Source: Vicugna vicugna (lineage: Eukaryota). Taken from it: 64,000 bases of DNA. Positions 6,001-62,976 of this stretch are shown here, one piece after another (the first letter of the stretch is position 1; each line of letters begins with the position of its first letter). Both the position numbers and the translations under genes were made by a program. Location of the stretch: contig MU058198.1 in NCBI GenBank assembly GCA_013265495.1, forward strand, positions 7,207,779-7,271,778, in the 5' to 3' direction. Below the pieces are notes generated by a model. That model saw only the letters and a program-made list of their open reading frames with translations, searched no databases and had not been told where the DNA came from.

Positions 6001-7657
6001 CACCTTAGGAGTGACTCAGGCCCCTGGAGGGAACTAGGAAAGAGTAAGCCAGGCTGAGGAGATGAGGAAATGGGGAAGAGGCCTCCCCCACCTCCTTTCC
6101 TTCAATGAAAACACAAGACTGCCTTTCTCTGTTTCACAGAGGGGCCTTGCCTTCAGAGTGTCCCCTCCATCCAGACATCCCCATCTCACCACCCTATCAG
6201 ACCAAGGGTTATGGGGAAGAGAAGGTGCCTCCATCCCTCCACACTTTCCCCCTAAGGCACCAAAGATCTCCACCAGAACCCCTGTCCAGCCAGCCCTCCA
6301 GAATATCTGGCCTGTGGCTGGAGTTGCCCATTGAAGAGCTGGGATACCTAAGATATCATCTCATTCAACCTTTCACCTCATAGAGGAGGACAGTGAGGCA
6401 GGGAAATGAGGAAGACACTAAGTCAAGGGCACACAACGCACCAAAAGCTTAAGCAAGGCTTAGGCTCAGATCCAGAACTCCAGACACCTGGTCTGAAACC
6501 CTAACACGCCAGTTCCAAAGAAACCTCAGGATGCTCTAGGCAAGACAGATTGCTAAGAAGCCCACTCCCACTAATCACCCCCTGGATCCTCAGAAGAGGA
6601 TAGGCTGCCAGAATATGGGCAAGGTGTATCATTTCCTCCTCCCCCAACCTCTGCTTCCCTGAAGCAGTCCTACTGGGTGCCCACTGGGTACTCACAGGCT
6701 GCCGGAATACTGGCTGCCCCCCAGGAAGCCATACTTGTCCGTCTTGCGCAGAGCCAGCCCATTTATCTCTGAGTCTGAGCCCATGGAGCTCACATCATCC
6801 GCCAAGGACTCTAAGGTCCCAGACATGAGGCTCACGGAGTCCAAGTAGCTCAGAGTGTCTGGGGCCTGCCCTCGAGGCCCAGAGATGCCAGGTCCCAGGC
6901 TGGACGTGGAGCCTAGGTCCTGAGAGTTTTCAGCAGGCTCTGGAGCTGGGGTCACGGTCACGACAGCTACCAGAGCCTCACATGTCCCTGGAGGGCCTGT
7001 TCCAGGCCCTGAGGGGTCCTCTGGAGCCTGTTCTGTTGATGCTGATGTTGCTGCTGCAGCTCCATGTCCACTTGTCACCTGTCCTGCTGTCACTGCTGCA
7101 ACCCGTGAAGTCACTCCTGAGGCCACTATGGTTCCCGACTTGGGGGCAAGCGGGGGTTTGGCGGTCAGGGCCCCAGGAGCCGTTCTGGAATAGGTCCTGG
7201 TGGGGTTCCCGGTAAGGGTACCTGGTCCAGGCGCGGGTGAGATTCCGGCCTCCTCCGTCTTTGGAGAGTCTGCCCCTGGCGCCAGAGCCTTAGACATCTC
7301 GGCTCCTGCCACAGCCTGGGGCGCCAAGGGCTCTGGGCCGGAGACCTGCGCCTTCGGGGCTTCGGGTGAGGCCTCCAGAGTCAGCACCACCACCGTGCTG
7401 CCTGTGACCGTCGGACCCGAGGCCGAGACCGAGGCCGAGGCCGAGGCCGAGGTCTGGGTTGGACCCGGTCCCCATGCGGGCAGCGCCTCCCCGGGGGCAA
7501 CCAGAGTGACCGGGGCCGAAATGGCCGTGGTCACTGGCGGCCCCGGAGCCACCACCACGACGGACCCAGCTCGGGAGCTGCGCGGCGGCGGCGAAGGGGC
7601 CGCGGGGGCGCCATGACGGCGCGGCGGGGCCACCAGAGGCGCCGGGCCGGTCTCCAT
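3042..7657 (-). CDS. TBC1D10B: TBC1 domain family member 10B (Rab GAP), 5' part; remaining exons lie left of the window
   Basis: Coding exons 7657-6696, 3757-3658, 3356-3249 and 3148-3042, all GT-AG and in phase. They give [12 protein letters not shown]...[69 protein letters not shown].../[26 protein letters not shown], containing the TBC IxxDxxR motif. Confidence 0.95.
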
Positions 7658-8800
7658 GGCCGCGGGCCGCCCCTCACATCCCCCCGCCGGGGCGGCCGCA
7701 AGAGGCGCCGCCCCTCAGGCCGCTCCGCGCCGCCAGCCGAGAAAGGGGAGAGGGCGAAGGGCGCGGCCCGGCGCGCGCTGGGGTCAGGGGCGGCGCGCGG
7801 GCAGCTGCCAAGCGCGCGGAGGCGGGGCAGGGGCCCGGGGATGCCAGGCGTCGGGGTCTCCCTCTCGCTTTCTCACCCGTCTCGATCTCTCGCCGCCGCC
7901 CCCTCCCTCCCGCTTCGGGCGAGCAGCCGACCTCGCGCCTGCGCATACGCCCCGGTGCCGGCCAAGCGGCCAGCGTTTCGGCGTTCCACGCCTGCGCGCG
8001 GGCGGTCCCATCGCGCTCCTTTTTCTTCCCGCCTCGTCAGAGGGCTCGGACGAATAATAGGAGAGAGGGAACCGGGTTTCTGCCAATCGTTGGAAGGGTG
8101 GGTGGGGTTGGAGGTGGGAAGGGGGTGGGTAATTTAGGAAGAGGAAACGGAGAAGGCGGAGGGCTATAAAAGCCAATGAGAGGGCGCGTGAAGGCAGGAG
8201 GAGGTGGAACGAAGGAAGTAACTAATAGCAAAGCGGGAAGCTTAACCTCCTGGCCAATAAAGATGGCTGAATAGTGAATGATGGCGGAAGGAGGCGGGTG
8301 CTGTGCGAGGAGAGGCAGGGCTGGCTCATAGGAATAATTAAAAGAGAGCCAATGAAAAGGGAAGTAGGCGGAGGTCAAATTGACAGACAGTAATGTCTAT
8401 TTAGGCAATGACAGACAGTATCCGCAGTCAATAGGAGCTGAGGAATTGAGGAATTCTTTAAGTCTCCCAAGAAGGTCAGGAAGAAATGACAGCTGAGGGG
8501 GGCGGGGGGCCAGGGCAAATTTGCGATTAATGTGCCTCAGTAGCCAATAAGCTCATTCTCTCACTTCAGCAACGGGAGGAAGATAGACAGCTGTATCAGC
8601 CAATGGCAGCCTCCAAAGGGTAGGGGCGCTGCCAGCAGGCGGTGCCAGCTCAGGGATATCTGTGACAATCCGAGACAAGCGCGGGAGAGGGGTGACAGTT
8701 GGGGACAGCGCGGAGAGAGGGCGGGGGCCGGGAGCATTGGTGTATTCCTTAGCCAATAAGAGCTCCGCGCTGCCCTGCCTGAGTCCTTTCTTGGTCCCCA
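7400..8800 (-). promoter_or_regulatory. TBC1D10B CpG-island promoter with NRF1-like motif and CCAAT-box array
   Basis: CpG-dense sequence around the ATG. GCGCCTGCGCA at ~7935. CCAAT at 8083, 8173, 8254, 8349, 8544, 8600 and 8753. Confidence 0.8.
7416..7452. repeat. Coding hexamer repeat (GGCCGA)n encoding a Ser-Ala dipeptide tract in TBC1D10B
   Basis: CCGAGGCCGAGACCGAGGCCGAGGCCGAGGCCGAGG, translating to [11 protein letters not shown]. Confidence 0.75.
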
Positions 8801-14051: not shown

Positions 14052-17000
14052 TCAGAGAGCGTCCGACTGCTCGCCTTGAGCCTGGCTCTGCTGCATCTGG
14101 GCCTGCATCTTCTCCAGCATCTCCTGCATGCGGCGCAGCTGTACAGGGCAAGATTGCAGGCGGTGGGACCGGGCGAGGCCAGAGAGGGACTTCGAAGAGG
14201 GCTTGGGGCCCTAGTCGCGGGGGAAGCTAGGTGCTTGCTCACCTCTTCGTCTTTCTCGCGGATCAACTTCTCCGTCTCCGCCAGAGGCAGCATGGGCAGA
14301 GGGATCTCTGTGGCGCTCTGGCGGGAGAGCTTACTACGGGGTGTAGGGAAGGGGCAGGAATCAATCAAGGGCTAGAGGCGCGGTTGTGGGTCACGGCCGC
14401 GAGGCAGAGCCTAGGCTTTGGCTGGGGTCCAGAAGGTGGACACATGTCCTTCGGGTTAGGGCCTTAAAGCCGTAAGCAAAGTGGGTGAGAAAAGATTCTA
14501 GGAGAGAGGTCTGGAAAGTGAAGGCTGGTGAGGGAGGGGCCTTGCAAGCACCTAGGAGTCAGCTCCGGCTCTCACCTCCGGCTGGCTCGATCACGCGCCC
14601 CGGGCCGGGCCAGGCTCTGTAGGCAGCGGGCACGGTAGCCCTCATAGAGCAGATCGTGCGTCACCTCCTTCAGGTCCTGCAGGTGTGTCTGTACCAGCAT
14701 CCGTCGCAGGTTAAGGAAATCGCAGTGATGGGGGTTCTCCACTGGGGGGCGGACCGGCGAGCGTCAGGGAGCTTGTGGTCCAGCCCCATCAGCTGGGTCG
14801 GGTCGCCCCAAAGCCCTGCCACCGCTGTAGCGGAGGGTCCGCAGTTTGCTGCCCAAGGACCCCTCTTTCGGCTCCTAGGACCCCCGGGACCAGAGCTCGC
14901 CCCATCTTCACATGTTGGATGTGGCTGACTTGGAGGCGGCCTGGGCTGCTTGCTGGCCTCAGAACACATGTCCCGGCTTACTCACCCTCCACGGTGCCCC
15001 AGGAGTAGCGTCGTCCCCTCACCGGTCGGGTCCCGCCATCCCTCACTACTTCACATGAACCGACGACTGCGAAAGGAATGCTTTCCTAGAGGGCAGTAGT
15101 CAGGGAATCATCCTTGGCCCCACTTTGGGCAGAAACTTCTTTCTCACCTCCTACTTCCACATCTGCCTCCCCTGCTTCTCTGCCCCTTCCTCCTTTGCCT
15201 CTGCACCTTCATCTCTGCATCCTGCCTCTTGAAGTCTTCATCTTCATCAGAGTCACAATCAGGGAACTGGTAGATGTTGATCTCCTCCTCCTTCAACTGG
15301 TCCCGGATCTTAAAAAAGACAGATGCAGAGATAGTGAGAAACACAGAGGCTGTGAGCCACAGAAATTACATGACCACAGAGAGTGAGATATAGATACAGA
15401 TAGGGGGTGGTAGAGACAGAGGAAGACATGAAAGACACAGATGGTGAGATGGATATACAGGATGACTAAAAAACAAAATCTGAAGACAATGAAAGGCAGA
15501 GACCTAGATGATGCAAAACTGAGACAAACAGTTACCCTAACAGGGAAGACAGATGCCTGGGAAGTTTCTAAGATGTGTAGACACCAAAAGACCAGGAGAG
15601 AAAAACATAAGCAGACACATGGGAGAGGGCTCTGAAGACACTGGGGCTAGGAAGGTGGTCAGCACTCCGGGGCAGAGAGATAAAAGGGGGTCATCATGTC
15701 TGTGTCCCTGCTCTCATACGGGCCTTAGCCAAGCATCCAGTCTAGGGATTCTGTTCTGAGCCTCCAGAGACATGGCTCCCTTAGGCAGCTTACGACCCAC
15801 CTTTCTCAGAAACCTCCCACAATCTAGCCTGACACATTAAGCTCCAAAAAGGCTATCCCAAGATCAAAGAAGTCAAAAGCTGAGTATGGGTTTGATCATG
15901 ACTTCTGGCTTCATGTGGGGCCAAAGGTCAGAGGCCACCACACACACCTTCTGCTTGAGGGCCTGTGTTTCCTTAGGCATCAGGGCATCTGCTTTGCCAA
16001 TGACCGGGATGATGTTGACTTTCTCGTGCACCGCCCGGAGGAAGGCCACATCTAGAGGCCGGAGCCTGCACCCAGGGATTGGTCCCATCTCAGTCTCAGG
16101 TACAGAGATCCCCCCTCATCCCTTCCAAATGCCCCAACCCCCAGGGTGCCCTCCAGACCCCCGGCCAAAGGGTGAGATGAAATAGAGGCAGCAGTGGACA
16201 CGGGTATCCTGAATGTTCTTCCGGTTCAGGCCACTCTCATCCCGAAGATACTGCTCAAATTGCTCCTCAATGAAGCGCACCACGGGCAGCCAGCTGGGGC
16301 ATGGAGAGAGAGCAGGCAGTTGGAGATCAGGGACCACAGGCAGGGAAGCGGGCAGGGGAGCCAGGACTGTGGGGGTGGGAAGTAGTTTCTTTGGCTCCAA
16401 CCAAAGACATCAGAGGAAACTGGCAGGTGAGATGTCGGAAAGCAATGGGTACTTTGGGCCACAAGGCCACCAGAAATGGGCCCCACCTTTGGGATCAGGG
16501 TTGGGGCAGCCAGGGTAGACCAGCCCTGTATCTAACCCCTCAGTCCCCACAGAATAGCCACATTGGGAAGCTGAGCCTCATACCCTCCCCTACTCCTTAC
16601 CAGTCTGAACAATCCACTGAGTCCCCAAAGCCAGGTGTGTCCACCAAGGTCAGCTTCACTTTAATACCTCCCTCCTCGATTTCCACACCCCGACGCTCAA
16701 TGGTCAGGGTTTGTGTCAAGCGGGCTATGAGGATGGGGAGACATCAGGGAGCTAGGTAGGGGTCTGAGGCAAGACTGATTTCCTTAGGCTCTCAGTTGCC
16801 CCCACATATTTTTCAGTGGAGGAGACTGGGTCTCAGAGAAAATCAGAGAGCTGCCTGAGTCCCCCAGAACATCACGGGAGACCCAGATGGGAAGGAAGAG
16901 AGTGCAGCCTCGGGACACAGGAGGGATCAGAGTGCCTGGACAGCATGGGGTGGGGCGGTCTTACCACTGGCCTCTGGTACTTGCCGATCCTCATAGAGGT

Positions 17001-17414
17001 TGGTGAGAAACAGGCTGTTGATGAGGGTGGATTTTCCCAGGCCTGACTCTCCTGAGGACAGGACAGAACCAACTGATCAGGTGAGAGGACAGCCAAGGTC
17101 TCTTGAGGACCCCTTGCCAGGCCCCTCTTCCAGACCCCCAGACCTGCCACCATGAGTGTGAAGTCAAACCCCTTCTTGACGGACTTGCGGTGCAGCTGAC
17201 TGGGGAGGGCGGCGAAACCCACATACTCCTTGTCCTGTTGGGGGGGCGTGATATGAGGCTGCTGAGGGCTGAAGGCAGGGCCCCCAGTGCAACCTGATCT
17301 TGGGGTTAGGAGAAGTCAGCCTACTGTGGGTTGACCTGGGTGGGCCTGGCTTCCTTGGGGGGTTGGGCGCTGGAAGCATAGATGCCTGGATTCCTGGGCA
17401 TAAAGACTCACCAT
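14052..17414 (-). CDS. SEPTIN1: Septin-1, 367 aa
   Basis: Exons 17414-17412, 17234-17144, 17051-16965, 16724-16601, 16293-16159, 16065-15948, 15308-15207, 15085-14986, 14741-14576, 14333-14243 and 14138-14052 (1104 nt). Contains the G1 GESGLGKS, G3 DTPG and G4 GKAD motifs, the septin unique element [11 protein letters not shown], and a C-terminal coiled coil. Confidence 0.96.
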
Positions 17415-17720
17415 GGCCCCGATAGCTGTCGCTGCACCTGCTGTCTCTCTCCACTTCCTCTGGTGGGCAGGAAGCTGAGAGCAGCAAACAAGGGGGCGGG
17501 CAATGTAGGAAGCTGAGATGCTCGAACCAGCCCAGAGAGGTGGGAAGAGCCAAGACTAAGAATACCTGGGGTCCTCACTTCCTGGATCCCTTTGCCTATC
17601 ACCCCTTTAGAAAGCTTCAACCCCTCTGTTCTCTGTATTCCTTTGTTCCAAGCCCGATTGTAGCCCCATCACCCTGTTGGGGGGGAGGGTATTGGCAGAG
17701 AGGAAGGAAGCGGGTTGGTC
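17415..17720 (-). promoter_or_regulatory. SEPTIN1 promoter region with ETS (GGAA) motif cluster
   Basis: CACTTCCT/AGGAAG at ~17452, 17469, 17506, 17576 and 17701, plus a GC box at ~17492, upstream of the ATG exon. Confidence 0.5.
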
Positions 17721-24700: not shown

Positions 24701-27569
24701 GGCCCAGACCCAGAAAAATCGGACATGAACTGTGCTACCGGGGAGAGAGGGGGAAGGGAGCAAAAGCCCAAGGAAGGAGCCAATGTTTCTGAGCACCTAC
24801 TACGCATCAGGTCACGAGGGGCATCATTTCAAGGACTTCCCCTTCCCGACAGGCATCACCATCCTCACTGCCTCTATCCTACTTCAGGCCTCATTCTGTC
24901 TAATCCTGGCAATTGCAGCAACCTCCCCTCAGCCCTTTTCTCTCTGTGTAGTCACACTGATCTAAGTCCAGATCTAATCCTGTCTCCCTTCACAAAAACC
25001 TTCCCTTGCTCCCTCTGCCTACTAATTAAAAACCTTAGCCTAGTGTTCAATTCAGAGGATACATGCTTAATCTAATTCCAGCATCCCTTTCCAGCTTTAT
25101 CTTCCATTCCTTTCCATGGTTTACTCTTTTCTATGCTGTGAAAGCCCAGCCCTATTTCCTCTCTGCTGTGACAGCACAGTTATTCTAAGCCTGCAATCAT
25201 AATTATTTGTGTTTTATCTCCTACCAACCCAAAGCATCTTGAGGAACAGGTGTGTGTCTGGGTCCTCTCAGGTACACACAAGATGATTGAGAAATAAATT
25301 ACAGGATGCGCTAATATAAAAAAGATATAATAGAATTAGCGAGTACTGGTTTTCCAAATAGAGACAATATAATGTAGGGCTTAACACAGTCTTGGGAATC
25401 AGACATACCCGAGTTAGAAACCTGGTTTTACTACTTTCTAACCTTAATAGCCTTGAGCTAGTGACTTAAATTCTCCAAGTCTCCCCATGTCTATAAAATG
25501 GGGATAGTAACAGTATTATCTCATAGGATTGTTCGCAAGGATTCAATAATGTTTAATTAAGTTATTGGCACATACGAAGGGCAATGGTAAAAAGAAGTTA
25601 CTGTTATTGAGAGGCACAGACAATATGTGCTTCAGAAATTCAGAGGAGCAAGAGCAAGAGAGATCCTTGTGACCACAGACTGTCAAGGACACCTTCTTGG
25701 GGAGGCTGCAGTGGAAGATAGGGCCTGAGCCAAAGGGCAGATCTGCAACTCCCTTTTCTTTCCCCAGGTCTAGGGAGTGAGAATGCAGAAATTTCTCAGC
25801 CAGATGAGTATGATCATGCCCCACAGGAGGATGACCTGGGGTTCAAGGAAGAGGAAGATTTGGCCCCAGGTCATGAAGTAGGAAATGCCTCTCTCAAACC
25901 CGAAGGCATCCAGACCTGGGATGACTTGTGGGTCCAGAGAGAGGGACCTGGAAAACCTCAGGCTCGGGACAGAGGCCCCCGGCTCCTCGGAGAACCACGC
26001 TGGGGCCAGGTTAGTGATCGGGCTGCTGTGTGTGGTGAGTGTGGCAAGAGTTTTCGGCAGATGTCAGATCTGGTGAAACACCAGCGGACCCACACAGGGG
26101 AGAAGCCCTACAAGTGCGGGGTCTGTGGCAAGGGCTTTGGGGATAGCTCTGCCCGGATCAAACACCAGCGAACTCATAGCGGTGAAAAGCCCTACAGAGC
26201 CCGACCTCCAGCCCAGGGTCCCCCAAAGATTCCTCGGTCCAGGATCCCTGCTGGTGAGCGCCCCACTATCTGCGGGGAATGTGGCAAGAGCTTCCGGCAG
26301 AGTTCTGACCTGGTGAAACACCAGCGGACACACACGGGTGAGAAGCCATACAAGTGTGGCATCTGTGGCAAGGGCTTTGGCGACAGTTCTGCCCGCATAA
26401 AGCATCAGCGGACACACCGAGGGGAGCAGCCCCCTCGGCCTGTGGTGTCCCGACGGCAGCCATCCCGAGCGGCCATGGCAGCTGCACAGGGACCTAAGGC
26501 CCAGGACAAGCCATATATCTGCACTGATTGTGGAAAAAGATTTGTGCTCAGTTGCAGCCTCCTGAGCCACCAGCGCAGTCACCTAGGGCCCAAACCTTTT
26601 GGCTGCGACGTGTGTGGAAAGGAATTTGCCCGGGGCTCAGATCTGGTGAAGCACCTGCGGGTGCACACAGGAGAGAAGCCCTACCTCTGCCCTGAGTGTG
26701 GCAAGGGCTTTGCTGACAGCTCTGCCCGGGTCAAGCACCTCCGTACCCACAGTGGTGAGAGGCCTCACGCCTGTCCGGAATGTGACCGCACCTTCAGCCT
26801 CAGCTCCACCCTTCTCCGCCACCGCCTCACTCACATGGAGCCCCAGGACTTCAGCTTCCCGGCCTCCCCTCTGGCCCCCCTGATCCCCAGCCCACCCCCC
26901 AGCTCAAGCCCACCTCCACCTCCCCTCGGCACCAGCCCCCCGCTGACGCCTCGAAGTCCTTCACACTCAGGTGATGGCCCTTTTGGCCTGCCTGGCTTGG
27001 AGCCAGAGCCTGGGGGCCCACAGGCTGGGGAGCCACCCCCACCACTGGCGGGTGACAAGCCCCACAAGTGCCCTGAGTGTGGCAAGGGCTTCCGCCGAAG
27101 CTCGGACCTGGTGAAACACCATCGCGTACACACGGGGGAAAAACCCTACCTCTGCCCTGAATGCGGCAAGGGTTTTGCCGACAGCTCGGCCCGAGTCAAG
27201 CACCTCCGCACCCACCGTGGTGAACGGGCTCGGCCACCACCACCATCCACTCTCCTGAGGCCACATAACCCCCCTGGCCCAGCACTCACAACCCCTCGAT
27301 CCCGAGTCCGGGCCCAGCCCTCCGGACCCAGCCAGCCCCATGTATGTGGCTTCTGTGGGAAGGAGTTTCCCCGGAGCTCAGATCTGGTTAAACATAGGCG
27401 AACACACACTGGGGAGAAGCCATACAAGTGTGCAGAATGTGGCAAGGGTTTTGGTGACAGTTCTGCCCGTATCAAGCACCAGCGTGGGCACCTGGTCCTG
27501 AGGCCCTTTGGGACAGGGGATGGTCGGGCAAGGCCCCTGAAAGAGGAGCCACCAACGGGACTAGAATGA
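24550..27569 (+). CDS. ZNF48: Zinc finger protein 48 (12 C2H2 fingers, no KRAB), 626 aa
   Basis: Exons 24550-24628 and 25768-27569. Protein MERAVGSWGPDL...GART/GLGSENAEISQ... joins in frame to ORF 25860-27569. Syntenic position matches. Confidence 0.93.
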
Positions 27570-38700: not shown

Positions 38701-39845
38701 CTCCCAATACAAGCACTCCTATCCATTCTCACTGAAAGCTGGAATTTTTTTTTTTTATTTAATGCTGAATCCCCAATGTCTAGAACAGAGTCTGGCACAT
38801 TGTACGCGCTCAATAAATACTGTATTAATAAAGAACAGCTAGAATGACACTAAGCATTGTGATGTGCGTTAATGGCTAATCTCACTTAACGCGCACAACC
38901 GTCCTAAGAGGCAGGCACCGTGGCATTTCCTACTTTACAAACGGGGACGGAGAGGTTGCAGCTTGCGGAGCCCCACGTTTCTGGCTCCCAGGCCTCTCGG
39001 TCAGGGCTGACCTGTCGCCCCTCTCCCCGCAGGTCCCGAGCGAGGCGCCAGCGCCGTCGGCCGACCCGGCGCGCCCACACGCGTGCCCGGACTGCGGCCG
39101 CGCCTTTGCGCGCCGCTCAACGCTGGCCAAGCACGCACGCACGCACACGGGCGAGCGGCCCTTCGCGTGCACCGAGTGCGGCCGGCGCTTCTCGCAGAAG
39201 TCGGCGCTGACCAAACACGGCCGCACGCACACAGGCGAGCGGCCCTACGAGTGCCCGGAGTGCGACAAGCGCTTCTCGGCCGCCTCGAACCTGCGGCAGC
39301 ACCGGCGGCGCCACACTGGCGAGAAGCCGTACGCATGCGTGCACTGCGGCCGCCGTTTCGCGCAGAGCTCCAACTACGCACAGCACTTGCGCGTGCACAC
39401 GGGCGAGAAGCCGTACGCGTGCCCGGACTGCGGACGCGCCTTCGGCGGCAGTTCGTGCCTGGCGCGCCACCGACGCACGCACACGGGCGAGCGGCCGTAC
39501 GCATGCGCCGACTGCGGCACGCGCTTCGCGCAGAGCTCGGCGCTAGCCAAGCACCGGCGCGTGCACACAGGCGAGAAGCCGCACCGTTGCGCCGTGTGCG
39601 GCCGCCGCTTCGGCCACCGCTCCAACCTGGCGGAGCATGCGCGCACGCACACGGGCGAGCGCCCCTACCCGTGCGCCGAGTGCGGCCGCCGCTTCCGGCT
39701 CAGCTCGCACTTCATCCGCCACCGTCGCGCTCACATGCGGCGCCGTCTGTATATCTGCGCGGGCTGCGGCCGGGACTTCAAGCTACCCCCTGGCGCTACA
39801 GCCGCCACTGCCACTGAACGCTGCCCAGATTGTGAGGGCAACTGA
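32782..39845 (+). CDS. ZNF771: Zinc finger protein 771 (acidic N-terminus, 8 C2H2 fingers), 317 aa
   Basis: Exons 32782-32922 and 39033-39845 (954 nt). Protein [18 protein letters not shown]...[26 protein letters not shown]...CPDCEGN*. AATAAA at 40076-40081. Confidence 0.94.
33890..33906 (-). promoter_or_regulatory. CTCF motif
   Basis: CCACTAGGGGGCAGC on the - strand matches the CTCF core consensus. Confidence 0.7.
34075..34300. mobile_element. MIR SINE (one of many; others at ~4090, ~4560, ~25370, ~35910)
   Basis: MIR core: TTACCAGCTGTGTGAACTTAGGCAAG...CTCTTTGTGCCTCAGTTTTCT...GTAAA. Confidence 0.65.
35610..35757. mobile_element. MER5A-like hAT DNA transposon fossil
   Basis: ATCACCCAGGGATCTTGTTAAAATG...GATTCAGTAGGTCTGGGGTGG...TTTTAACAAG...GATGCTGATGCTGCTGG...GGACCACACTT. 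Confidence 0.75.
37865..38830. mobile_element. Ancient L2 LINE fragments (approximate limits)
   Basis: Same L2 motifs (CTCTCTCCTGAGCTCCAGA, CAAAATATATCCAGAA, GCTCAATAAATAC). Confidence 0.55.
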
Positions 39846-42759: not shown

Positions 42760-45533
42760 CTAGGTTGGGGCCTGACCTGCAGACTCACAGGCAAGGTCTG
42801 CAGGCCTCACAGTCTGGTCTTCAGAGGTGGCCTCGTGGGGCAAGTCTGTATACTTGCGGGCGGAGCCGCGGGACAGATGTGCTGGGTAGCGTTGCCGGTT
42901 GGTGTCCATCTTGGAGAGCACTGCTTGGGGCAGGTCTACATGGCAGCGGGCTGCTAATGCTACCAGGTAGATGAGGACATCACTAAGCTCCTCTTGAAGT
43001 GCTGCTCGTTCCCTGGGGGACCAGGCTTGAGGGCCAGGCTCCTCATCGGGCTTCCACTGACTGGGGAGAGAACACATAGGCACACATGCATAGACAGTAA
43101 CCAGGACAATGGGTCCACCTCTCTTAGGTGCACCCTAGTTCTTGCAGCAGTAAACTCCCACCTCCTGGGAAATTCCTCCGAGGACAACTCAACTCATCTG
43201 GGCTCTGACTTTTCATGGGCCCCAACAGATGACTCACCCAGACCTCTGTGTTCCAAACCTGAGCCAAGTAGCCATGAGAACATGTCGCTTACTGCAGCCC
43301 AGTTCTGCTCCCCACCCCCCGCTGGAGCCCTAGACTAAACCTCAGACCCGGACCTCTGAGGAAGCCTTCTAACATCGTCATGCCTCTTGCCCTGTGCCAT
43401 CTTTTAAAAGCACAAATTACATTTTGTCCCTTCGCTGCTTAAAACTCCCTCAACTGTGCTTGGAATAAAATCCAAACTCCTACCATGCCCTCTAGGTCCT
43501 ACATGAATTGACTCCTGCCTCTTCCAATGTCATTGTCCACCACTCTCCCTTTGACTCCCCACCTAAAGCCACTCTGGCCCTTTCTGTCTTGCAGAGAGGC
43601 CAAACTGTCACAGGGCCTTTGCACTTACTGTTACCTCTGCCTTGAATGCTCTTCCCCCCATCCTTCCCATGGCTGGCTGCTACTCAGGTCTCAGCTCAGA
43701 TGTCATGTCCCCAGAAAAGCCTTCTCCCTCTGTTATTTTCCTTCTCATCACCTTGTGTTATTTTTCCACATAGAATTTGTCACCAGTCCATATCTTTTAA
43801 AATTGGTTTGATTATTTATTGTCAGTTCCCTTGCACTGTGATGTAGGAACTTGTCTGTCTTGTTCAAGGCCGTATCTCGATCCTAGAATACCTAGCACAC
43901 ACATGATGCTCCCGAATCTGTAATGAACGAATGGCTTGCCCTCACAGACATTTGTGCCCTCATTTCTTCACCCAACAGTGACTGCCCAGCTTAGGCCTCA
44001 CCACCTTTTGCCGGATCTACACCAGCCTCCTCACTGGTCTCCCCTGGCTCAATTCTCTTGGTGATCCAATCCACCCTGAAGACATAGTGATATTTCTACC
44101 ACTCAAATCTGGTTAGGTCTTCAGTATAAACTCTATTACTTCCCAATCCTGATTCTGTGTTCCAACCTAGCGCTCTCCTCCACAGCTACAGCAGATATAT
44201 ATTGAGTGCCTATTGTGTGCCAGGCACTTCGGATGGACCAGAGAACAAAATATACACAATCCTTGCCCTTCCTCGAAAAACTTACACTGAAGGAATCTTA
44301 AACTCTCCCTTAATTTAACTTGCCCTTTCCTACTTCGCTACCTTTGCAAATGTAGTTCCCCCTGTCTGAAATGCCATAGGCAGGTCTCCTATAGAATCCT
44401 TTCCAACCCAGAGGCAGAGGTAAAGGAAGGTTCCACCACCTCTTCTTAGACCTGGATCTGCCTTGCTGTTTTCACAATTTTCCCAGGAGCCTGGACAGCC
44501 CTAGTGGGCAGGGACCCATTAGCCATCTCTGTATCCCCAGCAACCAGACACAGAACTTGATAGTGAGGAGGGGAAATTGCATCCTGGGATATTTGATGGT
44601 CACATAAATCCTCCCCAACAGACAGACTTTCATCTACTCACAAAAGCTCCGCCAGCTCCCCTACTTCCCCCACCAAGGCCAGGAGGAGGTTCCGAGGCTT
44701 ATGGAACTGGTCCCAGTCTCGTTCAGCAGCAAACTCAGCATGGAGGCGGCGGCTAGAAGAGGAGGAAAAGGGTAGAAGTCCAGGTCCCAAGGTTAGCGGG
44801 TAGGGCAGAAGATGCAGAACCCAGGCAGGTACCTCAGTGATATGTAATGGGGACATGGGTAGCAGAGAGGATTCTGCAACTAATTCCTTGGATGGCCTAA
44901 GCAAGTCAGTTGTCTTTAGGGTACTTGGTTTCCTTATCTATAAAATGGGTGCGCCCTTACACAGACCCTAAACTATCGAAATCTAACAATACCTTCTTTT
45001 CCGTTATTCCACCTCCTGCTGGGGCTTCTGCAGTTTCCTCCACCTAGAATATCCCTATCTCTGCATATCTAAAGCCTATTGATTTTACAGAATGCAGAAC
45101 CAAGACACTTCCCCTAAGAAGCCCTCCTTGATTTCCTCCAGCAGTAAATGTCTCCCACCTCTTAGCACTACATTTGCCCCCGTCCTACGTCTCGTTCCTG
45201 GAGGGCAGAGGCAAGGCAGAAGCAGCATTTGACTCCGGTATTCCCCGCCTCAGGTGTGCACTGTTAATCCCATTTTCCAGATAAGGAGGTTAGAAGCCTT
45301 GCCCGAGGTCAGGGAGCAGAGCTGAGACCCCAGCACAGCTGCTAGCTTTCTTGCCGACCACGTGGACGGACCCTCCCCAGTAGGAAGGAGAAAGGGGGCG
45401 ATCTCCCCAGCCCAGACGGGGCAAGGACGGCTTACATGTCCTCCAGCGTGGGTTCAGAACTGAAACTGAAGGGGCCGGCAGAAGCAGTGCCCTCTCCCTC
45501 CGTGTCCCCACGCCTCTCCTCACCAGCTGACAT
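42760..45533 (-). CDS. DCTPP1: dCTP pyrophosphatase 1 (MazG family), 169 aa
   Basis: Exons 45533-45436, 44752-44642 and 43060-42760 (510 nt). Protein ...EPTLEDIRRLHAEFAAERDWDQFHKPRNLLLALVGEVGELAELFQWK...LQEELSDVLIYL, containing the MazG EXXE...EXXD motif. Confidence 0.95.
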
Positions 45534-46806: not shown

Positions 46807-47216
46807 TTTTCTTTTGTTTTCTTTTTTTTAATTTCTGAATTTATTTTACAATATCATATTTTTTAAAGTGAAGCATATTTGAGGTACAATATTATATGTT
46901 ACAGGTATACAATATAATAATTCACAATTTTTAAAGGTTATACTCCATTTATAGTTATTATAAAATATTGGCTATATTCCTTGTAAAATACATCCTTGTA
47001 GCTTTTTTTTAGCTTTATGTTTTATTTATTATTTAATTATTTTATTTTGGTCAGGGGAGGTAACTAGGTTTATTTGTTTTTAGAGGAGTTACTGGGGATT
47101 GAACCCAAGACCTCATGCGTGCTAAGTAAGCACTCTACCACTTGAGCTATACTCTCACCCCCCTTGTAGCTTACTTTATACCTGATAGTTTGTACCTCTT
47201 AATCCTCCACTTTCAT
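46807..47216 (-). mobile_element. L1 3'-end fragment with TSD, itself interrupted by a SINE
   Basis: Poly-T plus L1 3'UTR-like sequence, flanked by AGCAAGTGACATTT at 46793 and 47217. Confidence 0.75.
47005..47161 (-). mobile_element. tRNA-Ala-derived SINE (Vic-1-like)
   Basis: On -: GTATAGCTCAAGTGGTAGAG...TTAGCACGCATGAGGTCTTGGGTTCAATCCC plus an A-rich tail. TSD CCTTGTAGCTT at 46994 and 47162. Confidence 0.85.
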
Positions 47217-47971: not shown

Positions 47972-48066
47972 AGAGGGTGGGTATAGCTCAGTGGTAGAGT
48001 GTATGCTTAGCATGCACGAGGTCCTGGGTTCAATCCCTGGGACCTCCATTAAAAAATAAAATAAAT
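47972..48066 (+). mobile_element. tRNA-Ala(AGC)-derived SINE (Vic-1-like)
   Basis: GGGTATAGCTCAGTGGTAGAGTGTATGCTTAGCATGCACGAGGTCCTGGGTTCAATCCC...CTCCA plus an A tail. TSD TAAACAG[T/C]ACTTA. Confidence 0.88.
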
Positions 48067-52500: not shown

Positions 52501-53031
52501 GTCCTTACTCTTCGGTTTTTGATAACGCTCCCAGTACTCTCTCTGCCTGGTGTCCTTGACTTTACAGTATTTTTTAAATCCACATTTTCCAAAAAATAAA
52601 TCACCTTTTTCCTACAAAAGTGAGAAGTCATCTGGCTGTGTGACAAGGAGAGGTGTGAGAACTTCAAAGACCTGATTACTCTGTGCATAAACTTTTAACC
52701 AGTATCTGTTTTTATCCTCACCTTTTGACCCCACCTTCCTTAGTATACCTGGAGCATATCTCCTTGCTTCCTGTTAGTATTCCCTGACTCTGAAGGCATT
52801 TATACTTTGGCCTCCTCTGTTCTGCTCTTCCACCCACTTTCCATCTTCCAAGAATAGCTGACTTTTTTTTCTATTTCCTCTCCCACCCTTTAGTTCTTGG
52901 GGTTTATGCCTGTCTTGAGTCCTTTGCTGTCAACTCTAAATGAATCAGCTGGTTTATTTTATGACTGTAAAAAGATTCAGAATTCCAAGGATCCAAACAT
53001 TTAGCCAGAAGAATTTTTCAACAAAATTCTC

Positions 53032-53057
53032 TTTATTTCACTGGAAATCACTTTATT
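53032..53057 (-). terminator. SEPHS2 tandem polyadenylation signals
   Basis: AATAAA on - at 53057-53052 and 53037-53032, just 3' of the SECIS. Confidence 0.75.
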
Positions 53058-53121
53058 GATTAAATCACCAGGAATTTTCAGCACAAGATTTAACATCTTA
53101 ATGTCCACCAAGGCCTAGGCT

Positions 53122-53190
53122 CTGGGGCTTGCTCTGCCTCTCCCGGTCCTTAAAGGGGTTTAGAGGGAGAGACATCATTAACAGAGACCA
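53122..53190 (-). promoter_or_regulatory. SECIS element (type II) in SEPHS2 3'UTR
   Basis: mRNA GUUA-AUGA-UGUCUCUCCCUCU-AAA-CCCCUUUAAGGACC-GGGAGAGGC-AGAG. AUGA at 53178-53175, helix II GUCUCUCCC/GGGAGAGGC, AAA at 53161-53159, apical mini-stem CCU/AGG, and a 3' GA. Confidence 0.93.
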
Positions 53191-53760
53191 AGTAAGGTGG
53201 CTGAGGTCCTCCTTTCCCAATCATTGGACAAGCTGCTCAATTCTTGTCCAGAGCAGGAAAGAGCCAGTATTTCAGAGAAATCTAATAAAGAATTTGACAT
53301 TGCATTTTACTATCTCTCTTAACAGTTTAGATTTATCAACAATATTGGTCCAAACTTATTTGCTTCTGATCTAAATGTTTTTCATTTTGTAATTTACTTC
53401 TGCTATCTATGTAATTTTAATAATCTCACTCCCTGTGCAGAAATCAATCAACCCTGTGCCAAGAGAAATCTCTCAAACCTGAGTAGCCTAATCTTGCTCT
53501 TGGAAAGAGTAAATAAAGGTTTTTCTGCTCTTCTTCCACTCAAGAAATTAACAACCCTAACCCTCAGAAGTTCAAAATAAATGTTACTTTTGGCCTTGGA
53601 ATGTGCAGCTTTTGATGGGCCAATTCAAGTCACCTAGAAAGAGCAACTGGAACTACTATGCAGGCAGCCTTTGGAAATTTCTTCCTAAAATGAACTTTTG
53701 AGAACCGTCCATGATTGTGTACAAAGGCTGTCTGGTCCAGACCACTTCTGCTATTCCATC

Positions 53761-55119
53761 TCATGAGCTAGGCTCAGAGGAGGCACTGGCATTCTCAGGA
53801 ACAAGAGCAGTAGCAGTGGCCCCACGAGGTAGGACCTCAATGACTCGAGGCTTGTCAATGATCCGGGCGGTCCGGTTCCCCTTTTCCACAATGCCGACAA
53901 TCCATGCTTGGTGACCCTCTCCATACTTTGAAGATTTGATTTCAGAACAAAAGCGAGCTGCTTGTTCTCTTGGCAGACAAATCAGTAATCCCCCTGAAGT
54001 TTCTGCTGAGGTTCCTTGAAGGAGCCCAAAGCGCCCACTGGCTTTGCTGATGGCAGCCATCTTAGCAATAATTGGCAGATTATGAATGACAAAGGACACC
54101 TCATTTCTTTGTTGTTTTGCAAGGTTCTGAGAGTGTCCTAGAATGCCAAAGCCTGTGATATCAGTGGCTGCATGGGCATTAAACGTGTGCATTAATCCAG
54201 CAGCAGTTCTATTGAGGGTAGCCATATTGAACATGGCTTCCTGATAGGCCAGCTCTACCTCTTCTCTGGAGACCACCATCTTTATTTTATTCCATCTCTC
54301 AGGATTATCCAGCCATTGGTGGGCATTAACAGCAACTTGGGTTCCTAAGGGTTTGGTTAACACCAGCACATCCCCAACAACGGCACTGTCAGGCATTATG
54401 AATTCATTTGGCTGACATACCACAGTGGCAACTCCACCGACGATAATCCAAGGGTTTACTACCGTCTGCCCACCAGTCACTGCAGTCCCTCCTTCCTCTG
54501 CAGCGTCCCGAAAGCCTTTGATCATGAGTGGTGTTATCTTTTCTCGCTCCTCCTCAGTCATACTCTGGCTGACGCTGAGTAGCATCAACATGTTGTCACA
54601 TTCGGTAATGCCCATGGCGTAGAGGTCACTCAGCACGTTGGCACAAGCTATGCGCCCCATCATGTAGGGATCTTCCACCAAGGGGTAAAAGAAGTCCGTG
54701 GTCTGCACCAGGGAGAGGCCCCCGTGTCTCAGGGGTATGACACAGGAATCCAACCCAATGCCGAGGGTTGGAAGGGCTGGGCTGGGTTCCGCCCTAACCG
54801 GCAGGCAGGCTTCCTGGGCTGCCTCTTCTGGGCCTCCGACCAGGGTCCGGCCCAGCGGGGGCCGCACGTCTGGCCGCGTCAGTCCCGCCAGGAGTTTGAG
54901 CAGCGTCTCCTGGGGGACCTTGCAGCCTCAGCCCTTCATGCCAGAGAAGCCGGTCAGCCGCCAGCTCGGGCTTAGGCCCAACGCCTGGGGCTCGAAGGGC
55001 CGGTAGCTCGAGAAGCCTCGGCCTAGAGACAAACCCGCCGCGCCCGAGGAGCCTTCCCCCGCCGCCACCGCTGCCGCCATCGCCTCTCCGCCGGCGCCCG
55101 TTGCTGCGGCTTCCGCCAT
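53761..55119 (-). CDS. SEPHS2: Selenophosphate synthetase 2 (selenoprotein, Sec at codon 64), intronless CDS, 452 aa
   Basis: ORFs 54928-55122 and 53761-54867 are in the same frame, separated by TGA at 54930-54928 in [15 protein letters not shown]. SelD motifs [23 protein letters not shown] and ETSGGLL are present, as is a SECIS. Confidence 0.97.
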
Positions 55120-55199
55120 CACGCCTGCCCTGCAGGGAGGGGAAAGGAGGAGCGAGGACAGGAGATCCTTTTTACTTTCTACTCCAGTTAATAAAGAGT

Positions 55200-55450
55200 A
55201 AGTCAGATGTTACCGCAGAGATTTTCCCCGGCACAACTCTCACGGAAGGACTACTGCCACCCCACGCGCTCCTGGCGGTCCTGAAGGAGGAGCCTCTGGC
55301 CTCTCATATTTATAACCCTGGTGATTGACAGCTGTACCATCCAATGAGAACTTTGTCACCGAGGGGCGGGCTTCCTGCCGTCTAAAAGATGTATTACAAA
55401 TCAACCACCAGCTTCCGAAATTGGTCTCGGCAAGTTTACAGAACAAGTGA
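55200..55450 (-). promoter_or_regulatory. SEPHS2 promoter with PBX/PREP decamer + CCAAT + GC box
   Basis: TGATTGACAG at 55322-55331, CCAAT at 55341, GGGGCGGG at ~55363. TATAAAT on - at ~55313-55307. Confidence 0.6.
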
Positions 55451-60216: not shown

Positions 60217-60360
60217 GGGGGAGGGTATAGCTCAAGTGGTGGAGTGCATGGTTGGCATGCATGAGGTTCTGGATTGAGTCCCCAGTACCTCCTCTAAAAA
60301 TAAATAAATAAACCAACTTAATTACCTACCCCCCAAAATGAAATTAAAAAAAAAAAAAAA
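60217..60360 (+). mobile_element. tRNA-Ala-derived SINE (Vic-1-like)
   Basis: GGGGGAGGGTATAGCTCAAGTGGT...CCCCAGTACCTCCTCTAAAAATAAATAAA...CCCCCCAAAA plus poly-A. Confidence 0.85.
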
Positions 60361-61877: not shown

Positions 61878-61985
61878 TTTTTTTATAGACCACTTCACGA
61901 ATTTGCAAATCATCCTTGTGCAGGGGCGATGCTAATCTTCTCTGTATTGTTCCAGCTTTAGTATATGTGTTGCCAAAATGAGCAT
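61878..61985 (-). pseudogene. U6 snRNA retropseudogene (full length, diverged)
   Basis: On -: ATGCTCATTTTGGCAACACATATACTAAAGCTGGAACAATACAGAGAAGATTAGCATCGCCCCTGCACAAGGATGATTTGCAAATTCGTGAAG plus an A tail. The ACAGAGA box is intact, but there are many substitutions. Confidence 0.92.
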
Positions 61986-62884: not shown

Positions 62885-62976
62885 AATTGTTTTTAAAATG
62901 GAGGTACTGTGGGTTGAACTCTGGACCTCGTGCATGCTAAGCATGCGCTCTACCATTGAGCTATACCCCCACCCCC
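62885..62976 (-). mobile_element. tRNA-Ala-derived SINE (Vic-1-like)
   Basis: On -: GGGGGTATAGCTCAATGGTAGAGCGCATGCTTAGCATGCACGAGGTCCAGAGTTCAACCC. Confidence 0.85.

Follow-up and report, generated by a model that had tools for sequence, protein, structure and literature searches.

Selenophosphate Synthetase Genes and Their UGA Codons

All selenoproteins owe their selenium donor to SEPHS2, which, as the source of selenophosphate, is dependent on its own product (PMC13134290). As far as the available extracts of these papers go, the placental form of the gene, SPS2b, arose via retrotransposition and replaced the multi-exon SPS2a (PMC3316567, PMC4561486, PMC13134290), and the functional placental SPS2b is itself intronless (PMC3316567, PMC13134290). 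The decoding of its internal UGA has been followed in human and mouse. In human cells, the SEPHS2 UGA is read through more often as selenium increases, against the competition of release factors (extract of PMC5323020); in mouse liver, the ratio of ribosome density 3' of the Sephs2 UGA to that 5' of it is 0.43-0.58 and drops upon loss of Secisbp2 or of tRNA-Sec (extract of PMC5397149). A C-terminal KG is a C-end degron for KLHDC3, and truncated SEPHS2 is reported as a CRL2-KLHDC3 substrate in the part available of a review (PMC12035522). Vertebrate SEPHS1 reportedly does not make selenophosphate from selenide (PMC13134290, in part). A UGA in this column is not always read as selenocysteine (Sec), since the insect SPS1-UGA genes use a non-Sec read-through, according to the extract of PMC4561486.

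We analyzed a stretch of 64,000 nucleotides from Vicugna vicugna, called here the window, whose numbering is used throughout. It almost certainly carries an intronless placental SEPHS2 beside DCTPP1, in which a UGA at codon 64 and a downstream SECIS likely direct the insertion of Sec into the active-site loop of an enzyme of 452 amino acids. The locus resembles the human and mouse SEPHS2/SPS2b genes in its intronless coding sequence, the Sec-UGA within KGUGCK, the similar SECIS distances, the DCTPP1 neighbor and the KG end left by failed recoding; the only differences seen, those of the protein sequence, are at the species level, namely a few extra Ala-rich N-terminal residues. The SPS2a genes of marsupials and non-mammals share the enzyme, the Sec and the SECIS (PMC3316567, in part), but they are multi-exon and, in sauropsids, lie in the G6PD/IKBKG block (PMC13134290, in part), whereas the window gene reads in a single frame and belongs to the placental clade. 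Vertebrate SEPHS1 (SPS1-Thr) has the same AIRS/PurM-like fold family and a core identity of about 83%, but presents Thr in place of the UGA and forms a clade of its own. As for the insect SPS1-UGA genes, they have a UGA in the same column and a hairpin beside it, but no SECIS and a GGGUGY hexamer (extract of PMC4561486); the window gene has a SECIS and the hexamer GGCTGC, and thus shows neither of the two marks of the insect type.

A Single Frame Interrupted by One UGA

Read on the minus strand from the ATG at 55119, the SEPHS2 (SPS2b) coding sequence extends over 53761..55119 (-) and encodes 452 amino acids followed by a terminal TGA, with no frameshift and no stop other than the TGA at codon 64 and that at codon 453. 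A stop-to-stop listing of open reading frames breaks this sequence into two pieces of the same frame, 54928..55209 (-) and 53761..54927 (-), with one TGA between them. This TGA (54928..54930, -) is the predicted Sec codon and lies within K-G-U-G-C-K. A sequence-only reading of the window had described two same-frame frames parted by a single TGA at this motif, and both the frame listing and the codon reading agree with it. Aligned with SEPHS1 and SelD proteins, as that reading had proposed, the TGA falls in the Sec/Cys/Thr column: the position of codon 64 is Thr in the human SEPHS1 structures 3fd5 and 9hjt, and the same region reads KGCSCK in the enzyme of L. major (5l16). In-frame ATGs are found at 55119 (Met1) and 55080 (Met14) on the minus strand; G occupies positions -3 and +4 of each, and two N-terminal isoforms are therefore possible. 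Compared with the primate record P0004, the alignment shows a few extra Ala-rich N-terminal residues, which is why the Sec is residue 64 here; in human SEPHS2 it is Sec60. The UGA of the catalytic column is followed three residues further by K67, the arrangement of the Sec-type SPS2, and for the L. major enzyme it is the Cys46/Lys49 spacing that is named catalytic in the available part of a preprint (bioRxiv 10.1101/2020.01.28.922716).

The same reading had warned that naive annotation would break the gene at the TGA, and the closest protein records behave in this way. Core identity to the product is at least 92% for 30 of the 120 homologues listed, and none of these 30 spans codon 64 or contains the KG-x-GCK motif, in a protein collection that may under-represent U-bearing records: seven retain the N-terminus and have a gap over codon 64, and the 23 others begin downstream. 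Curated databases do annotate Sec. The absence of this position from all 30 of the closest proteins is also what would be seen if the TGA were a true stop, through a nonsense allele or a sequencing error, with translation from a downstream ATG giving an N-truncated protein and nothing else. Against this, records in many species skip, or start after, exactly codon 64, which points to an annotation artefact; among the 80 distant eukaryotic loci described below, 39 likewise have TGA here; and a trypanosomatid enzyme deprived of its N-terminal Cys/Lys loop fails to complement, as stated in the extract of bioRxiv 10.1101/2020.01.28.922716. A true stop is hardly credible on these grounds. The main value of the finding is a correct annotation.

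Orthology, Neighborhood and 5' End of the Gene

The product matches the SelD family model TIGR00476 (NCBIfam) with 256.6 bits against a cut-off of 125 (E 3e-76), and both Pfam domains AIRS (PF00586) and AIRS_C (PF02769) score above their cut-offs; structures of human SEPHS1 already represent this fold. Its core identity reaches 99% with placental SEPHS2 records and is 80-83% with most SEPHS1 records. We built a maximum-likelihood tree from 27 of the 121 available proteins, a choice covering SEPHS1, SEPHS2 and outgroups from insects. The query nests among the placental SEPHS2 proteins in a clade with 100/100 support, and SEPHS1 forms a separate clade, also with 100/100. The terminal branch of the query measures 0.021, against a median of 0.061, and hence shows no accelerated decay.

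Toward lower coordinates SEPHS2 adjoins DCTPP1, of which we located two exons on the minus strand (44638-44937 and 42760-43134, the latter with a PDB match at E 2e-45), and then two C2H2 zinc-finger genes recognized with Pfam on the plus strand (25722-27569 and 38880-39845). Further away lie a TBC1D10B-like exon (6692-7714, -) and a SEPT1-like exon (about 16900-17500, -), both putative; Pfam gave no match for the frames of these two putative exons and for one DCTPP1 exon, that is, for three of the six queries. From the gene order, these frames of the window would correspond to ZNF48, ZNF771, TBC1D10B and SEPT1. The neighborhood agrees with the order ZNF48, ZNF771, DCTPP1, SEPHS2 given for human and sheep in the available extracts of PMC10137620 and PMC10376747. 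Judged by its sequence, the locus is a placental SEPHS2 orthologue and not a pseudogene, because of its placement in the placental clade and because it adjoins DCTPP1 as in human and sheep; from this orthology, the product is predicted to synthesize selenophosphate from selenide and ATP.

The 5' end of the gene is CpG-rich, with an observed/expected CpG ratio of 0.97 at 55000-55250 versus 0.0-0.1 in the 3' UTR. Candidate Pol II promoter motifs of the minus strand, found by motif match, are TATAAA at 55314-55309, CCAAT at 55345-55341 (reverse) and 55424-55420, and a GC box at 55369-55364; a scan for bacterial promoters, a method not applicable to such a gene, gave no match. Motif matches also outline a possible 5' UTR intron of 114 nt at 55243-55130 (-), with a donor-like GTGAG at 55243 and a polypyrimidine tract and CAG 10 bases before the ATG.

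The coding region is without introns, in one frame from 55119 to 53761 that aligns end to end with the orthologues, and this is a structure which a processed SEPHS2 pseudogene would share: the locus would then be a retrocopy whose UGA and SECIS are inherited remnants, and PMC3316567, in part, does describe SPS2b pseudogenes of human, macaque and guinea pig. The functional placental gene is, however, equally intronless in the extracts cited above, and the copy studied here has no frameshift or further stop, keeps its conserved place beside DCTPP1, sits on a short tree branch and has a CpG-rich 5' end with promoter motifs. Taken together, the orthologue placement, the synteny, the intronless functional gene, the SECIS distances and the 5' CpG and promoter motifs make a pseudogene very improbable.

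The SECIS Element and the 3' End

A scan of both strands of the 64-kb window with Rfam gave a single SECIS match, to RF00031 (SECIS_1), at 53120..53186 (-), with 35.5 bits and E 0.0022; its margin over the gathering score of 35 is only 0.5 bit. The hallmarks of a SECIS are the AUGA, the tandem GA pairs and the AA(A) motif (PMC3316567; PMC2761289, in part), and on the minus strand we find the AUGA at 53178-53175, a 9-bp helix, an AAA at 53161-53159 and a GA at 53134-53133. The core reads UGAU/AGAG, in which a U-A pair of Watson-Crick type and a U.G pair enclose the tandem G.A pairs. This core, the narrow Rfam margin and the folding energy of the whole hairpin given below count against the element. 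The AUGA lies on the strand of the gene, 1749 nt 3' of the Sec UGA and 582 nt 3' of the stop. These distances are close to those of opossum SPS2b, for which 1805 nt from UGA to SECIS and 596 nt from stop to SECIS are given in the extract of PMC3316567, and the minimum UGA-to-SECIS spacing is 51-111 nt (PMC3316567). The locus thus combines a 3' SECIS, of marginal Rfam score, with a spacing above this minimum.

By its folding energy alone the element does not stand out, the whole hairpin being no more stable than its shuffled versions: the z-score is -0.99 over 91 nt and -1.63 over 67 nt, and reaches -2.36 in the 47-nt core. We would expect this of an element with non-canonical core pairs. A filter combining a SECIS-like pattern and its fold found this SECIS as its one match in the window and matched 5 of 2000 dinucleotide-shuffled 3' UTRs, a figure that flatters the SECIS because the filter was designed after the element was known.

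Three AATAAA hexamers, candidate poly(A) signals found by motif match, follow the SECIS on its 3' side at 53057-53052, 53037-53032 and 52958-52953 (-). The earlier claim of a SECIS hairpin some 1.75 kb downstream, just 5' of poly(A) signals, holds on all these points. We also surveyed the share of the words of 52700-53760 held by sequencing runs (24 listed, 18 indexed; sampled words only, no read positions). The share was 0.55-0.63 in four runs recorded as RNA, from one study, 0.53-0.65 in ten runs guessed to be RNA and 0.98 in four runs of unrecorded kind. The shares of the RNA runs, a weak indication, would suit a transcript whose 3' end is near the first AATAAA, and also the DNA of a related, diverged species.

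The system had also been called complete, which is overstated because the window holds the cis signals only: the UGA and the SECIS are present, and none of the trans factors. In particular, the Rfam scan of the 64-kb window gave no match to tRNA-Sec. The same scan returned four similar degenerate tRNA-like matches, at 62899-62970 (-), 47977-48048 (+), 60221-60293 (+) and 47085-47156 (-), which are probably copies of a tRNA-derived SINE, perhaps akin to a camelid one, and not tRNA genes. It also returned a full-length U6 snRNA match of 83.5 bits at 61879-61985 (-), which ends in a run of A and not of U and is likely a retroposed U6 pseudogene.

Probable Recoding of Codon 64

With a UGA at the active-site position and a SECIS downstream, codon 64 is likely read as Sec and not as a stop. 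By analogy with the human and mouse orthologues, SECISBP2 would bind the kink-turn of the SECIS, and Sec-tRNA(Ser)Sec, carried by eEFSec, would compete with the release factors at the UGA. A stem-loop that begins just after the Sec codon (54872..54927, -), with an inner stem of 13 bp (54919-54881) and a spacer of 8 nt, likely aids the recoding, again as judged from these orthologues. It resembles the SREs described in SPS2 genes (PMC4561486, in part). Its folding energy is -35.4 kcal/mol, with a z-score of -3.06 and 2 of 200 shuffled sequences equally stable. It matches no Rfam model in a search of 53760-55400 with E up to 10; the four weak matches returned by this search are far below their cut-offs and were taken as due to chance.

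Recoding would be partial. When it fails, translation gives a peptide of 63 amino acids with a C-terminal KG, and this product, ending ...MKG, would be cleared by CRL2-KLHDC3. When it succeeds, the UGA of codon 453 likely serves as the normal stop, and the enzyme would be the source of the selenium donor for Sec synthesis, its own included.

The strong hairpin after the UGA and the marginal score of the SECIS could also suit another mechanism, in which the UGA is mostly read as a standard amino acid without the help of a SECIS, as in the insect SPS1-UGA genes. Distant loci add to this side. A metagenome scan for DNA of mammalian orthologues yielded 80 loci, all of them distant, with a best-segment identity of 53-77% and no mammalian SEPHS2 among them; their Sec column contains TGA in 39, Arg in 29 and Leu in one, and was not found in 11. 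Many of the TGA loci had no detected SECIS: Rfam gave none in the 20 of the 80 loci scanned, 10 of them of TGA type, and a looser filter found a SECIS-like match in 7 of 26 full-length TGA loci versus 0 of 23 Arg loci. On the other hand, a SECIS is present in the window, where the UGA is followed by GGCTGC, as against the GGGTGY read-through hexamer of 32 of the 39 TGA-type distant loci, and the read-through of mouse Sephs2 depends on Secisbp2 and tRNA-Sec (PMC5397149, in part). We consider a standard amino acid at codon 64 extremely unlikely.

The preferred reading, a SEPHS2 with SECIS-directed Sec at the catalytic column, was already that of the sequence-only reading, and it is supported here by alignment, tree, synteny, Rfam and, in extract, published work on the orthologues. 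That this is known biology in other mammals, as it had also stated, accords with the recoding published for human and mouse (PMC5323020, PMC5397149, in part). Recoding, retrogene origin and KG degron are all in print for SEPHS2, a textbook selenoprotein gene, and the finding will not surprise specialists; the only fresh question concerns the small chance of recoding at the terminal UGA.

The Terminal UGA

The coding sequence ends with a second TGA, followed by G (53761..53763, -; codon 453), whose read-through would extend the protein by U and 34 amino acids before a TAG with its last base at 53656. Where selenium is plentiful in the cell, a fraction of the ribosomes might insert a second Sec at this codon and produce a SEPHS2 of 487 amino acids, with a C-terminal tail of 35 residues that would tune its stability or activity. 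We think of this since the terminal UGA lies 582 nt before the SECIS, well above the minimum of 51-111 nt, and the second UGA of DIO2, which can take Sec, offers a precedent (PMC3316567, in part). No stable hairpin follows the terminal TGA (z +0.96 against shuffles). A G at +4 favors termination and counts against recoding at this codon. Two frameshifted gene models, one of a galago and one of a bat, end in ...AHEMKW and ...ALEME, and the shifted frame of the window in ...AHEME, which suggests, at the level of these predicted models, that the TGA-G stop context is common to several orders. A search of the literature gave no report of terminal read-through of SEPHS2; a preprint, bioRxiv 10.1101/2025.08.15.670488, concerns frameshifting in the part available. 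A second Sec in SEPHS2 is, on balance, very improbable.

Distant SPS Loci with UGA or Arginine

Some observations concern the distant loci themselves. Among those of TGA type (L008-L018, L026-L029, L043 and L045), many are without a detectable SECIS and resemble the SPS1-UGA non-Sec genes; the lack of matches could also come from 3' UTRs that are cut short or from poor detection. In a quick tree, 19 SPS loci that have Arg at the Sec position form a clade with an SH-aLRT support of 100 (within L015-L055, e.g., L030:266-1585 and L019:72-1514). A literature search gave nothing on this clade. It is separate from the named SPS1-Arg proteins of insects, its neighbors being loci of TGA type without a SECIS-like match, and it may represent a further independent change from UGA to Arg, beyond those described in the extract of PMC4561486.
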